This document shows, piece after piece, positions 7,047 to 10,960 of a stretch of 11,229 nucleotides of DNA. Under the pieces are notes generated by a model. The model was not told where the DNA came from. It searched no databases and saw only the letters and a program-made list of their open reading frames with translations. The stretch comes from a virus. Its lineage: Duplodnaviria; Heunggongvirae; Uroviricota; Caudoviricetes. Location of the stretch: IMG/VR virus record IMGVR_UViG_2711768032_000007. The stretch is one strand, 5' to 3'. The stretch's first letter is position 1. Each line of letters starts with the position of its first letter. Position numbers and translations under genes: made by a program.

Positions 7047-8237
7047 TTAATTGCTGTTAACCGAAGTGACCAGATTTGCCAGGTATTTATCGGTAATACG
7101 CTGGCGCAGGGTCAGGTTTTCAAGAGGAGGCACCGGTGTATAGTCGTAGTCGATATACAGTTTTCCGGCCTTGAGGGTTTCCGCATCGTTGGATTCTTCG
7201 CTGAACCAGCAGGTCGCATCCACGATATAGCCGTTTGTTTTCAGCTCACGGAATTTGGCATTGATGCCGTCAACGATGTCGCGAATCAGCGTTGCTGTGA
7301 TGGGCTTATCCACCGCCCACATATGCGCCTCAGCCATCGTGTCGGCCAGCACCTGCGCGGTGCGGGTGTAGTTTTCAAAGAGGAACAGCGGGTCATCAGA
7401 GCAGGTACGGTTACCCCAGAATCGGAAACCGTCGCGGCGAATCAGCGTAGTGACGCCTGACTCGTTAAGCAGGTCAGCATCGGTGCCGGACTCCTGCAAA
7501 TCCCAGAATACAGATGCGCTGATGCCGGTAACACCGTTTACCCCGACGTTGGACAGCGTTTTATGCCAGCCCTGCTCCTGGTCGATTTTAGCGCGCAGAC
7601 CCAGCGCACGGGCGGTGGCATACGCGGTGGCGGTGGTGCTGCTGACCGTATCCCATGCGAGGAAATCCGGCCAGATGACCATCAGCTCACGCTGGCTGAA
7701 ATTCTGACGGTAGGCTTTCACCTCGGAAATGGTTTTACAGCCCCATGCGCTGATATACCCGAAAGCGCGCAGCTTCTGACAGACTGATGCCAGTGCAACA
7801 GCCACCTCTTTGGTGTCCAGTCCCGGCACGCCGAGAATACGCGGTTTAACACCGGTTACCGACTCCGCCGCCAGCAGGGCTTTCAGTCCGGTGTACTGAC
7901 CGTTTTCGTCGGTGGTGCCGATGATATTGGAAACGGTCTGCGCGAGTTTCGTTTCCTCGTCGTCGCCGGTGCCGTCTTCCACACGCACGACAACGGTGAC
8001 CGGTTTTGACTGGTCGGCGATGGCCTGCAACGATGCCGCCAGCGTGCCTTTTTTACCAGCCTTTGCAATTGCGCTCTGCACATTGGTAATCAGCACCGGT
8101 TTATTGATGGGGAAGGTTTCCGCATCCGCATCGCTGGCCGTGCAGACCATGCCGACAATGGCCGTGGATACGGTGGAAATGACGCGGGTGCCGTCGTTAA
8201 TCTCCAGCACCTGCACGCCGTGATGATAGTCACTCAT
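7047..8237 (-). CDS. FI: P2 gpFI-like contractile tail sheath protein
   Basis: 396-aa ORF, first gene of the FI-FII-E-T-U-D operon. GGAG ribosome-binding site 8 nt upstream of the ATG. Length and position match P2 gpFI. Confidence 0.9.
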   Translation of the reverse strand: MSDYHHGVQVLEINDGTRVISTVSTAIVGMVCTASDADAETFPINKPVLITNVQSAIAKAGKKGTLAASLQAIADQSKPVTVVVRVEDGTGDDEETKLAQTVSNIIGTTDENGQYTGLKALLAAESVTGVKPRILGVPGLDTKEVAVALASVCQKLRAFGYISAWGCKTISEVKAYRQNFSQRELMVIWPDFLAWDTVSSTTATAYATARALGLRAKIDQEQGWHKTLSNVGVNGVTGISASVFWDLQESGTDADLLNESGVTTLIRRDGFRFWGNRTCSDDPLFLFENYTRTAQVLADTMAEAHMWAVDKPITATLIRDIVDGINAKFRELKTNGYIVDATCWFSEESNDAETLKAGKLYIDYDYTPVPPLENLTLRQRITDKYLANLVTSVNSN

Positions 8238-8268
8238 CCGTTTAACTCCGTGGTTAATGGGTGCAACT

Positions 8269-8315
8269 ATTATCCGTTGGGTAGTACATGAGACGCTATT
8301 TGACCTGGCTGGTCA
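8269..8315 (-). promoter_or_regulatory. Candidate late promoter for the FI operon (-10-like GATAAT, weak -35, upstream dyad TGACC-N5-GGTCA)
   Basis: On the minus strand, GATAAT lies at 8274-8269 with a poor -35, as expected for an activator-dependent promoter. A dyad sits at 8301-8315. A canonical Ogr-type TGT-N12-ACA site was NOT found by eye, so the call is weak. Confidence 0.3.
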
Positions 8316-8330
8316 GTGGATGAAACATCA

Positions 8331-8361
8331 GATAAAGAAAAGGCGGGCAATCTGCCCGCCT
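8331..8361 (-). terminator. Intrinsic terminator (minus strand) separating the accessory island from the FI operon
   Basis: Perfect 9-bp stem AGGCGGGCA / TGCCCGCCT with a 3-nt loop (8341-8361). On the minus strand it is followed by TTTCTTTATC. Confidence 0.5.
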
Positions 8362-8592
8362 GTCCTGATTTGTACACACTCATTTTCCGACTGACAATTT
8401 ACATAGCCAAAATGCTATCAAATCTGACAGCCTGTTTTGAGCGAAGAGGAACCTGAGATTGTGGTATGCTAATTTATGGGGAGCAGGTCAATTGTATTAG
8501 TTATCTTTTTGCCTTTCTTTATCCCATTTCTTTACAGTGGTCTGATACCACTCTTCACGTGTTCGTTATTCCTCTGCTCTGTCACTTGAATT

Positions 8593-9189
8593 TTAGTTGT
8601 CTGTTTTAATTTTTTTGCTTCCCTGGGAAATCGGCCTCCAGTCTTCTCTAATATTTTTCATCTGCTCAGCTATCTGTGTCATTGGACTCCTTGCACCTAA
8701 GTAGCTAACCCCCTCGAAAGAAGCCATATCATAAGAATACTCATTCCGCTCTCTTTCAGTTGAGCCCGGCTGTTTAGACCAGCTAATACTAACAGAATAA
8801 ACTTGATCTTTAATCTGGTCATACTTACAAAGACTGCTGTTGAGGGAATGGCCGTTTTTCAATACGCTAACCTTGCTAAATGGTATACCTTTATTTTTTC
8901 TATGTTCTGCATTAACCAGTGGGGGATTAAATCCGACTTCAATATCATAGGCTGGGGCATTTCCGGTATTAGCAATATTGATATCAAAATAAAAAGCAGC
9001 CCAAGAATTTGGTTCAAGAGTCACAACGACATGAGGTTGAACTGATGCGTCAACCATCCTTTTTGTCTCGTCTGCTAATAGCCTTGTTACTCTCCACAAG
9101 AAAAATGTAGCAACTGCTGTTAGCAATGCTGCCAAAGCGGAGATAAGTGTACTTACTGTGTTTATATGCTCTGCGATAAATTCGATCAT
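8593..9189 (-). CDS. Hypothetical membrane-anchored protein (198 aa; one N-terminal transmembrane helix plus ~160-aa soluble domain), accessory cargo
   Basis: ORF with an AAGGA ribosome-binding site about 7 nt upstream of the ATG. Residues ~11-32 (TVSTLISALAALLTAVATFFLW) form a hydrophobic helix. AT-rich codon usage unlike the flanking tail genes. No family recognised. Confidence 0.6.
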   Translation of the reverse strand: MIEFIAEHINTVSTLISALAALLTAVATFFLWRVTRLLADETKRMVDASVQPHVVVTLEPNSWAAFYFDINIANTGNAPAYDIEVGFNPPLVNAEHRKNKGIPFSKVSVLKNGHSLNSSLCKYDQIKDQVYSVSISWSKQPGSTERERNEYSYDMASFEGVSYLGARSPMTQIAEQMKNIREDWRPISQGSKKIKTDN

Positions 9190-9609
9190 GAGTTGTCCTT
9201 GGGGGCGTACTAATTGTTTTCAATACTAAAATAGCGCCGGGCTTGAAAAATTGCACACTTATGGTTCGATTTACCTCAACAGTTAAGGCTTCAACTTCCC
9301 CCATGCACCTCACCCAGCCCAAGACTGTATGAGGTCTGACAAAGAACTTCCTGACACTTGAAAACGAGGCAACGGCTAGGGTTTCTCGTAGGGCAAGGAT
9401 TGAATACGAAGCCTGTATATTGCTCCGCGAACGCTGCTGAGGGCAGTTTAAATGTTGGGCGTTTATGTAGCCTTTCACTCACCAGCATGAGTTCAATGTC
9501 TGTGAGTTACCGACAACAATATAAAGGGGGTGGCATCATCATATATCCAAGCTAGAGTCAAATCCTCTAACTGGTTTTATGATCAGTGTCAATTGTTTGA
9601 TTATTGAAC

Positions 9610-9638
9610 GTTTACGAAGCAGCACGGGAGCCATATAA
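9610..9638 (+). promoter_or_regulatory. Candidate sigma70 promoter for the DUF3606-like gene (TTTACG-N17-TATAAC)
   Basis: -35-like TTTACG at 9610-9615 and -10-like TATAAC at 9633-9638 with 17-bp spacing. The predicted start lies downstream of the 9642 ATG, which favours the 9681 start codon. Confidence 0.3.
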
Positions 9639-9680
9639 CTAATGGGCAGGTATAAGCCTGTATCACGAGGAATCAGTAAA

Positions 9681-9860
9681 ATGGCTGATGATAAGACCAA
9701 AATCGGTACCCCTGACAATGATTTAATAAGTATCAAACAGGATTACGAGAGACGTGATTGGGCTGAAAAGTTTGGAGTTAGCGAGACCAAACTTGTTCAA
9801 GCCGTACAGGCTGTAGGTCATTCGGCTAAGAAAGTACAGGCATGGCTTAAAGACCATTAA
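9681..9860 (+). CDS. DUF3606-like small protein (59 aa from ATG 9681; alternative 72-aa form from ATG 9642)
   Basis: MADDKTKIGTPDNDLISIKQDYERRDWAEKFGVSETKLVQAVQAVGHSAKKVQAWLKDH fits the DUF3606 pattern as I recall it (N-terminal MADDK..., central EKFGVS, C-terminal AV..VG). AGGA ribosome-binding site at 9668-9671. Confidence 0.65.
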   Translation: MADDKTKIGTPDNDLISIKQDYERRDWAEKFGVSETKLVQAVQAVGHSAKKVQAWLKDH

Positions 9861-9866
9861 TATATG

Positions 9867-9890
9867 AGCGCCTTTCTAGGCGCTTTTTTC
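9867..9890 (+). terminator. Intrinsic terminator after the DUF3606-like gene
   Basis: 7-bp stem AGCGCCT / AGGCGCT with loop TTCT, followed by TTTTTT (9885-9890). Confidence 0.5.
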
Positions 9891-9912
9891 TTTGTCCTTT
9901 GGGGGATGATTT

Positions 9913-10191
9913 ATGGCTAATAATTTATTTATTACTTACGACCTCATTAAAACGAAAGATTATGCGGCTGTGTATGATGCAATTAAATCTTTAGGAAATT
10001 GGGCTTTAACAACTGAATCGAACTGGTATGTTAACTGTAGTTACTCTGCCGAGGATGCAGCCAAAATTGTGAGGGCGGTCATGGATAGTGATGATAAGCT
10101 TATTGTTGTAGACGCAACCAATAACTCAGCTTATTGGTACAATCTCTCAGATGAAGTTAGTAACCAAATTCTGACTGAGTGGAACAAGTAA
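9913..10191 (+). CDS. Hypothetical small protein (92 aa), accessory cargo
   Basis: Strong GGGGGA Shine-Dalgarno motif 6 nt upstream of the ATG. Alternating hydrophobic and polar segments suggest a compact alpha/beta domain. No family recognised. Confidence 0.55.
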   Translation: MANNLFITYDLIKTKDYAAVYDAIKSLGNWALTTESNWYVNCSYSAEDAAKIVRAVMDSDDKLIVVDATNNSAYWYNLSDEVSNQILTEWNK

Positions 10192-10220
10192 TTAAAGGGG
10201 GTGGGTAGCCCCCTTTAATT
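10190..10220. terminator. Long perfect hairpin (12-bp stem) downstream of the 92-aa ORF, probable terminator
   Basis: AATTAAAGGGGG tgggtag CCCCCTTTAATT. The 3' half of the stem carries the U-rich tract. It lies between the convergent 92-aa ORF (plus) and tfa (minus). Confidence 0.5.
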
Positions 10221-10411
10221 CAGAAACTATCATGATTGAAACATTAAATATACTGGGTTAATTCTTTCATCCTTGCTCCCTTGCTATATGTCCTGAAAGC
10301 GTCCTTTTTAGCCTTCTGCTCAGTATGTCCGGTAATGGCACAGAGCGGACTGCCAGATTAGGCTTTACTCTGTGCCATAGATATGTAATCTCACACCAGA
10401 GCTTATACAAC

Positions 10412-10960
10412 TTATTGCGGCATTTCCGGCCATTCAGGATTTGCAGGATCCACACGACTGACCAAAACGCTGTAGCGTTCCCAAGCCTCCAGCCGTGTGC
10501 GCTCCTCCTCTGTTGCCATGTTCAGCCTGACAGCGCGCTCCAGCGGCAAAATCACGGATTCAGCATCTGCAAGAAGTCTGGCTTTCCGATTTTCTGCCTG
10601 CTGCTGCAATTCCTCTGCCGTATAAATGCGTTTAATCACTTTGCCGTCCTTAAACATCCAGTTCCCTGAAATGTCCGCCCGTCGGTTAGCAGTAATATCC
10701 GCCACTTCAACCACACTTAATCCATCCGGTCTGATAGCTGTCACATCCTTTTCCACATAGCGGATGATATTATCTTTGTCGTACGCTATTTTTATCGTGT
10801 CATCAGCAAAATACTTTTGTTCTTCGTACCAGTTCTTACCATCTTCTGTAAAAAACCAGACGACATCAAAGTTCTTTGTCAATTGATATTGTTCAACCGT
10901 TTTTGGATTACCTGCCGTTATATTTATCAAATGCTGCGTATTTTCATGAAAGGAGATCAC
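10412..10960 (-). CDS. G: Tail fibre assembly protein (P2 gpG / Tfa family); 5' end atypical and possibly disrupted
   Basis: C-terminal half (...[28 protein letters not shown]...[42 protein letters not shown]) is typical of Tfa chaperones, and AGNPKT is present near the N-terminus. The ORF has no in-frame ATG near the expected start: ACG sits where the family start Met is expected. The called start is a GTG at 10958-10960 that lies inside an IS-like repeat. Confidence 0.75.

Follow-up and report, generated by a model that had tools for sequence, protein, structure and literature searches.

The fun(Z) gene of phage P2 blocks phage T5, and old/tin and orf30 are the other moron hotspots of this phage. 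The stretch of DNA analysed here (the window; 11,229 nucleotides, IMG/VR virus record IMGVR_UViG_2711768032_000007) carries two small plus-strand genes at the corresponding position of a P2-like prophage, namely one coding for a DUF3606 protein of 59 amino acids (aa) and one coding for a protein of 92 aa. The explanation favoured here, with slightly better than even confidence, is that of a moron cassette captured at the Z/fun locus, with one promoter and two separable accessory genes, the second of which is attenuated, and that does not act as a toxin-antitoxin system.

The position of fun(Z) in phage P2 is the interval between the tail sheath gene FI and the tail fibre assembly gene G, one of three recognised moron regions of P2-like phages (PMC6823313). 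The gene pair of the window shares this FI-G position with the P2 Z/fun locus, and the locus is known for non-essential cargo that varies between near-identical phages (PMC6823313). Indeed, the interval was found to hold different, unrelated genes in other P2-like phages, such as fiAA91-ss and another P2 isolate, so that both position and variability of cargo among relatives place the pair in the Z/fun moron hotspot. An earlier note on this DNA had described the pair, which proved to be real, but had missed the hotspot. As at the P2 Z/fun locus, transcription of the cargo would be separate from, and antisense to, that of the late operons; by annotation, the proteins bear no relation to Fun(Z). 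Defence systems have been catalogued at the P2 old/tin hotspot (PMC9122126), and the FI-G cargo is unmentioned in the systematic defence-hotspot studies consulted.

The closest described relatives are ORF23 and ORF24 of phage R18C and the Z-region of P2-EC53 (AJ512682). Both records contain the 92-aa protein with 100% identity, and the Z-region DNA of P2-EC53 is 98.7% identical over window positions 8208-10441. In R18C, where they occupy the fun(Z) position, the same two open reading frames (ORFs) of 219 and 279 bp have been reported as rare morons without known function (PMC6823313). The gene pair is hence already on record in both, and no sequence difference sets these loci apart from the window. 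The reports omit the integrase fossil, the donor element, the Cas2-like fold and the separability of the genes. New here are the capture from the integrase-proximal end of a donor element together with its fossil, the fold and family of the 92-aa protein, the link of an intergenic hairpin to the 92-aa gene, and the unequal histories of the two genes. The published text on R18C speaks of a 219-bp ORF, unlike its GenBank record (L129, MN016939.1), in which an antisense 44-aa ORF, corresponding to window positions 9723-9857 on the minus strand, is annotated in place of the DUF3606 gene. The left and right inverted repeats annotated in AJ512682 were not reproducible as complementary sequences.

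Origin and layout of the cassette

The cassette comprises, in this order, a conserved promoter block, the DUF3606 gene, a terminator hairpin, the 92-aa gene and a probable two-way terminator, behind which lies the remnant of an integrase gene:

9570-9616, plus strand: upstream block with the palindrome ACTGGT-N6-ATCAGT (9570-9587), then the -35-like hexamer TTTACG (9611-9616); left edge of the captured cassette
9634-9639, plus strand: -10-like hexamer TATAAC, 17 nt after TTTACG
9681-9860, plus strand: DUF3606 gene, 59 aa (Pfam PF12244); disordered N-terminal tail and three-helix bundle
9866-9891, plus strand: intrinsic-terminator-like hairpin GAGCGCCT/AGGCGCTT with T-run, between the DUF3606 and 92-aa genes
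9913-10191, plus strand: 92-aa gene; stand-alone protein with a predicted Cas2/VapD-like ferredoxin fold
10190-10220, no strand assigned: GC-rich hairpin AAAGGGGG...CCCCCTTT, which faces the convergent gene G and overlaps the 92-aa stop codon
10241-10357, minus strand: fossil of a tyrosine integrase C-terminus (tblastn, 27/42 identical to residues 351-392 of the L051 integrase, E = 8e-12); right end of the captured cassette

The region 9570-10339 aligned over 774 bp, at 79% identity, to the bacterial loci L051-L054, and the alignment covered the promoter, the DUF3606 gene, the hairpin, the 92-aa gene, the terminator and the 3' end of the integrase gene. Together with the 42-codon integrase fossil between the 92-aa gene and G, this homology establishes, at the level of sequence comparison, that the cassette was captured as one piece from the integrase-proximal end of another element, namely a small capsid-encoding integrative element. 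A donor-type locus surrounds the 76%-identical homologue P0008, where an opposite-strand 82-aa gene, the DUF3606 gene, the 92-aa gene and a convergent tyrosine integrase gene follow each other. Elements of this family occur in chromosomes of E. coli and other enterobacteria (L045-L047, L051-L058 and L079-L081) and encode a tyrosine integrase with a DUF6538 N-terminus, a Phage_cap_E (lambda-E-type) capsid protein, a protein of 620-710 aa without Pfam match and several small ORFs; the 92-aa gene always lies beside the integrase gene. The elements resemble capsid-encoding satellites or minimal prophages.

The region upstream of the 92-aa gene differs among these elements. In L047, the 82-aa gene is followed by the same promoter block and then directly by the 92-aa gene, without DUF3606 and without hairpin. 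In L045, L046, L055-L058 and others, a 621-aa gene, a lysine-rich ORF of 42 aa and a hairpin precede the 92-aa gene. The two genes of the cassette are separable: the 92-aa gene is a constant, integrase-adjacent gene of the donor that is widely found alone, and the DUF3606 gene is an optional insert behind its promoter. The 82-aa product, encoded in L051 (6282-6530, minus strand) and also in L047 and L080, divergently from the cassette promoter, is a repetitive hydrophilic protein (...KSLAGSVLSQ... repeats) with a weak Con-6-like match (E = 0.01), and its gene did not move along to the P2 hotspot. An imperfect 21-nt direct repeat (17/21 bases; ...AAAGGGGGTGG) is present at 9513-9533 and 10184-10204. 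One copy forms the left arm of the terminator behind the 92-aa gene, and the other is situated just outside the left edge of the captured block; the repeat could be a recombination scar or a product of chance.

The upstream block was nearly invariant in the window, L051, L080 and L047; compared with the DNA immediately before the 92-aa gene of L047, its identity was 91% over 47 nt. Both hexamers, TTTACG and TATAAC/TATAAG, were conserved in L051, L080 and L047 as well, the spacer sequence being different in L047. The promoter-like element proposed in the earlier note is supported by this conservation in three other cassette variants, but was not called by a consensus scan. The palindrome, which is perfect (ACTGGT-N6-ACCAGT) in L047, L051 and L080 and lies about 24 nt upstream of the -35-like hexamer, may be an operator. 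It was rejected as a LexA box; the CTG-N10-CAG spacing fits, but CTGG/CCAG is present instead of CTGT/ACAG.

The 52-bp gap between the two genes holds the first hairpin and its T6 run. That this structure is a credible intrinsic terminator, as had been proposed, was borne out by a terminator scan, which called 9866-9885 followed by TTTTTTC (8 pairs, 5 of them G-C), and by its folding energy (-13.3 kcal/mol, z = -4.3, 0/200 shuffles as stable). A hairpin of the form AGCGCC...GGCGCT, usually with a T-rich run, precedes the 92-aa gene behind DUF3606, behind the 42-aa ORF and behind another ORF (L007), which indicates that it belongs with the 92-aa gene and not with DUF3606. Over 13 variants, 83% of the pair cells held standard pairs; G-U wobbles occurred but no compensatory double changes, so that covariation speaks neither for nor against a role as RNA. 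Similarly, the hairpin at 10190-10220 folded stably on both strands (-19.1 kcal/mol on the plus strand and -17.0 on the minus strand; z = -3.5 and -3.9, respectively), was called by the terminator scan on the minus strand and is probably a two-way terminator. Most of the enterobacterial variants shown (L002, L003 and L045-L047) have a GGGGG...CCCCC hairpin 3' of the 92-aa gene; L004 and L005 do not. An Rfam scan of 8200-10500 yielded only a sub-threshold chance match, on this second hairpin.

The T-run and the start codon of the 92-aa gene are only about 21 nt apart, too close for another promoter to fit between them, and in L047 the block stands directly before the 92-aa gene alone; both arguments favour one promoter for the two genes. 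Unequal expression from that promoter, as suggested earlier, would hence be the most economical reading. The hairpin would pass only a fraction of the transcripts on to the 92-aa gene, with the DUF3606 protein made in excess and the 92-aa protein kept at a low level. Expression would probably take place in the lysogen, since the cassette is antisense to the late tail operons.

Relationship between the two genes

The resemblance of the pair to a toxin-antitoxin or sensor-effector module, raised in the earlier note, failed on both co-occurrence and co-divergence. The absence of co-occurrence in other genomes, by which the note itself would have the idea refuted, largely holds. Profile hidden Markov models (HMMs), applied to all fetched loci, retrieved the two genes side by side at 47 of the 121 loci with a 92-aa gene and no DUF3606 at the other 74; a further 8 loci had DUF3606 but no 92-aa gene. 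All 47 paired loci stemmed from three related cassette lineages, namely the P2 module and two integrase-element lineages. The stricter view that the pair never recurs outside P2 was overturned by the context of P0008, which has the same pair beside an integrase gene. Among 36 species-level loci with the 92-aa gene, DUF3606 was present only in Pantoea leporis, with the same P2-type cargo. Similarly, DUF3606 was found in 102 complete E. coli genomes and the 92-aa gene in 124; 24 of these 124 genes are paralogues of about 70% identity, and at most three of the 24 can be accompanied by DUF3606, leaving about 21 genomes without any detectable DUF3606. Synonymous differences between the window and L051 or L080 amounted to 0.32-0.40 for DUF3606 and to 0.76-0.83 (saturated) for the 92-aa gene. 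In the comparison of L051 with L080, the DUF3606 genes were 97% identical in nucleotides and the 92-aa genes 67%. This unequal divergence indicates that a near-uniform DUF3606 segment recombined in front of old, diverged 92-aa alleles, so that the two genes have different histories, unlike a co-evolving toxin-antitoxin or sensor-effector pair. Furthermore, a terminator between the genes and a gap of 52 bp are atypical of type II toxin-antitoxin operons, and the tight coupling without terminator by which that type is recognised was absent here.

Both small plus-strand ORFs were confirmed, at 9642/9681-9860 and 9913-10191, as were their ribosome-binding sites, GAGGA at 9 nt before 9681 and GGGGGA at 6 nt before 9913, as read from the sequence. 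The first protein is indeed a DUF3606 protein, as a Pfam profile search returned PF12244 with E = 8.9e-18 and 64.3 bits (cutoff 24.3); residues 17-70 of the 72-aa form matched the full profile (positions 1-54 of 54), and PF12244 was found in all DUF3606 homologues retrieved. The preference for the start at 9681 over that at 9642 was upheld, because homologues, PHROG and Pfam alignments, and RefSeq agree on the 59-aa form and because the 13-codon extension changes while the body is conserved. All 21 aligned homologues from other taxa (21/21) begin, with MADDK, MSDD or MDNP, at that methionine, the PHROG 10779 alignment begins at residue 14 of the 72-aa form, and RefSeq annotates 59 aa. In the extension, 3/13 residues differ between cassette variants; the ratio of nonsynonymous to synonymous substitutions (dN/dS) of the body is about 0.05, reflecting strong purifying selection.

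An AlphaFold2 (AF2) model of the DUF3606 protein (predicted local distance difference test, pLDDT, 76) contains helices at residues 21-31, 35-45 and 49-58 behind a disordered tail, and it may, tentatively, be taken as a small binding protein of three helices whose role is either independent or modulatory. For neither protein did searches point to a function: sequence profile searches of the PDB with both families gave nothing meaningful, PADLOC and NCBIfam gave no assignment for either gene (best PADLOC-DB 2.0 E-values 0.019-0.025), and a literature search by accession, PHROG identifier and DUF3606 found no functional study. DUF3606 relatives in Yersinia ruckeri and Burkholderiales had no 92-aa neighbour at the fetched loci. 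In Y. ruckeri (L038-L040), a lone DUF3606 gene, 75% identical, lies about 4 kb from homologues of yegS, yegQ and yegP, and may belong to a degraded island at the same chromosomal site (the yegQ neighbourhood) as the P2-like prophage of the window.

The three-helix bundle, with its weak similarities to HTH_19 and the LacI headpiece, the conserved palindrome just upstream of the promoter, and the insertion of DUF3606 exactly between promoter and effector gene would suit a helix-turn-helix (HTH)-like DNA-binding autoregulator of the cassette promoter, which could act, for example, via the palindrome and set the level of a 92-aa effector. Such a regulator is considered unlikely, as palindrome and promoter are no less conserved in L047, a locus without DUF3606, as the Foldseek matches of the DUF3606 model (UBA, EF-Ts N-terminal and LacI-headpiece) all have E > 1, with the UBA-like score above that for HTH, and as DUF3606 genes elsewhere stand amid small hydrophilic proteins with no obvious target gene.

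Fold and family of the 92-aa protein

A stand-alone Cas2/VapD-like DNase with the motif D11(X20)SST has been described in Burkholderia pseudomallei, namely BPSL1038 (PDB 7vxr; PMC10491678). The model of the 92-aa protein (pLDDT 96.4) has a b-a-b-b-a-b-b-a topology and thus the ferredoxin-like b-a-b-b-a-b fold of CRISPR Cas2 (PF09827), and its best Foldseek matches were BPSL1038 and many Cas2 proteins. The 92-aa protein and BPSL1038 both occur on their own, measure about 100 aa, share a Cas2-like ferredoxin fold (predicted for the former), carry an acidic residue where strand 1 ends, and are encoded in surroundings without CRISPR. Unlike BPSL1038, the 92-aa protein lacks the D11(X20)SST motif, its YD10L being separated by 25 residues from a single conserved Ser/Thr (S36), and the invariant residue is D61; moreover, no HMM-level match links BPSL1038 to the 92-aa family. 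Similarly, the YDL at the end of strand 1 is in register with the 'YDI/V' of CRISPR Cas2 in weak Pfam and PADLOC alignments, but the match is sub-threshold (PADLOC Cas2_II, E = 0.019, not significant) and neither cas1, a CRISPR array nor similarity to E. coli Cas2 was found. Indeed, the 130 fetched loci (1.39 Mb) contained no CRISPR-like array and gave no match to E. coli Cas1, a query representing one Cas1 subtype, at E <= 1. Comparison of sequences, as distinct from structural superposition, showed D10 to be invariant among 39 close members of the family, and Asp61 was invariant in 60/60 distant representatives.

The 92-aa protein has more than 140 close homologues, and its family numbers 2,397 cluster representatives (E <= 1e-3, 50% clustering), mostly of 90-100 aa, spread over Proteobacteria and their phages and not represented by a Pfam model. 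Members are present on 50 IMG/VR viral contigs, and one distant member lies in a phage early region with YqaJ/RecT on a Caudoviricetes contig. Another distant member shares about 61% identity with the protein of the window and is part of a Wadjet/BrxR defence island (L133, 4757-5282), with JetA, JetB, a partial SMC-like protein (putative JetC), a BrxR-like WYL regulator and an M78 peptidase/HTH pair as neighbours; it is preceded by a small Gly/Pro/Lys-rich ORF (59 aa, unrelated to DUF3606) and a GC-rich hairpin. Tandem double copies of the 92-aa domain (207-262 aa; P0193, P0206, P0211, P0236, P0280 and P0285) fit a dimeric working unit. In one metagenomic protein of 1,507 aa (P0174), possibly a gene-calling artefact, the domain occurs with Baseplate_J and CBM_5_12. 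Domain fusions were dropped as hints to function, these tandem duplications and this one protein being the only cases. An all-against-all BLASTP comparison of 37 loci yielded no conserved partner ORF of the 92-aa gene beyond element-specific neighbours. Within the P2 lineage, the gene has a dN/dS of 0.14-0.32.

On these grounds the 92-aa protein may, with low confidence, be a stand-alone protein of Cas2/VapD fold, probably dimeric, that binds or cuts nucleic acid and would serve the carrying element in conflicts with phages, mobile elements or host defences. A more far-reaching proposal, regarded as distinctly improbable, makes the whole unnamed family of about 2,400 clusters a single-gene weapon between elements, either a Cas2 mimic that would poison spacer acquisition by Cas1-Cas2 or a minimal nuclease-type defence or anti-defence factor, its dose held low by the terminator. 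Both roles, the Cas2 mimic and the new minimal nuclease, keep a small probability, and nothing here supports either directly.

Several results weigh against the favoured reading of an attenuated cassette with a Cas2-fold protein. Firstly, a single promoter with attenuation is deduced from the DNA sequence; the promoter fails a strict sigma-70 consensus scan, the last base of its -10 hexamer not being T, and the hairpin shows no compensatory changes among the 13 variants, so that its conservation could act at the DNA level. Without covariation and with wobbles only, the role of the hairpin as RNA rests on thermodynamics and the T-run. Secondly, the ferredoxin-like fold is very common, and ACT-like and MTH1187-like proteins score as high as Cas2. 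The match to the Cas2 family PF09827 stayed below threshold (12.7 bits versus a cutoff of 23.8; E = 0.15), hhalign of the 92-aa family with E. coli Cas2 gave a probability of 0.1%, the PDB profile search found nothing, and no PADLOC defence model matched. Thirdly, Cas2-like catalysis is unproven, because the residue at the Cas2 position at the end of strand 1 (D10) is acidic in only 52/60 distant representatives (D in 46/60, E in 6/60), whereas D61 is invariant. Lastly, DUF3606 has been kept with three different 92-aa alleles under strong purifying selection, which leaves room for a functional interaction when both genes are present.

The 92-aa protein could also be a housekeeping factor of the donor element, for instance one that controls recombination direction or excision together with the integrase, and a functionless passenger in the P2 prophage. 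Its integrase-proximal position throughout the donor family and the integrase fragment transferred along with it point that way. Little probability is given to this, as about 100 E. coli P2-like prophages and a viable phage carry the gene in intact form, with the dN/dS values given above, as it is convergent with the integrase gene and not co-transcribed with it, and as some distant members are found in phage early regions or defence islands; furthermore, relatives of the donor integrase and neighbours were undetected beside distant members, a search in which no general integrase model was run.

An orphan cas-like anti-defence gene of viral type, i.e. a Cas2 mimic that disturbs CRISPR spacer acquisition or another host system with a Cas2-like subunit, would agree with the carriage of the gene by phages and mobile elements, and viral cas homologues acting as anti-CRISPRs provide a precedent (bioRxiv 10.1101/2023.06.24.545427). 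Yet the protein has no sequence similarity to any Cas2, neither cas1 (E. coli Cas1 query only) nor a CRISPR array lies in the fetched loci, the fold is generic and there is no experimental hint, so that very little likelihood is left for it. The least likely alternative is a type II toxin-antitoxin operon with the 92-aa protein as VapD/Cas2-like nuclease toxin and DUF3606 as antitoxin made in excess through the intercistronic terminator: the order of small upstream and small downstream gene behind one promoter, a fold family that includes the toxin VapD and the antitoxin GhoS, and the recurrence of the pair in three cassette lineages are outweighed by the frequent absence of DUF3606 (including in L047, where the same promoter fronts the 92-aa gene alone), DUF3606 relatives without such a partner in Yersinia and Burkholderiales, the missing match to any toxin-antitoxin or defence profile, and, unlike in VapD-VapX/VapW and GhoS-GhoT, a partner that is neither conserved nor co-diverging, a terminator between the genes, and weak fold scores.

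Prophage setting and meaning

Several E. coli chromosomes, including that of strain D6, match positions 9400-10400 with 100% identity. For strain D6, the RefSeq annotation lists yegQ, ogr (ogrK), D, U, T (tape measure), E/E', FII (tube) and FI (sheath), and then a hypothetical protein, DUF3606, a second hypothetical protein, G (tail fibre assembly), H and the remainder of a P2-type prophage. Judged by this correspondence, the window consists of E. coli chromosome (yegQ) and, behind it, a P2-like prophage inserted beside yegQ. Around the cassette, the following genes are present:

7047-8237, minus strand: P2 gene FI for the tail sheath (annotated by RefSeq at the identical D6 locus; 98% identity to P2-like phages), one flank of the hotspot
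8593-9189, minus strand: gene for a 198-aa protein, divergent from the cassette (PHROG 11802, E = 7e-123, profile positions 1-198 of 230)
10412-10939, minus strand: P2 tail fibre assembly gene G (RefSeq annotation of the D6 locus), the other flank of the hotspot

The 198-aa gene accompanies the pair in every P2-like copy found, whether at FI-G or at matching prophage-type loci. It is a truncated copy of the 230-aa ORF1 of P2-EC53 and R18C, which is labelled 'putative lysogenic conversion protein', with two in-frame stops after codon 198 (window 8503-9189, minus strand) and 98-99% identity over the rest of the protein. Near the N-terminus, residues about 12-32 are hydrophobic and, read by eye, likely form a membrane helix, and the protein matched none of the PADLOC-DB 2.0 defence models.

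As cargo, this set of genes is one more example of unknown function in a well-known variable locus of P2-like phages. The toxin-antitoxin label is removed from it, and the unit to study is the 92-aa gene instead of the pair. The cassette further represents a concrete case of accessory-gene traffic between two kinds of mobile element. In addition, it draws attention to a large, uncharacterised family of predicted Cas2 fold on phages and mobile elements, which is cheaply testable, as the viable phage R18C carries a member.

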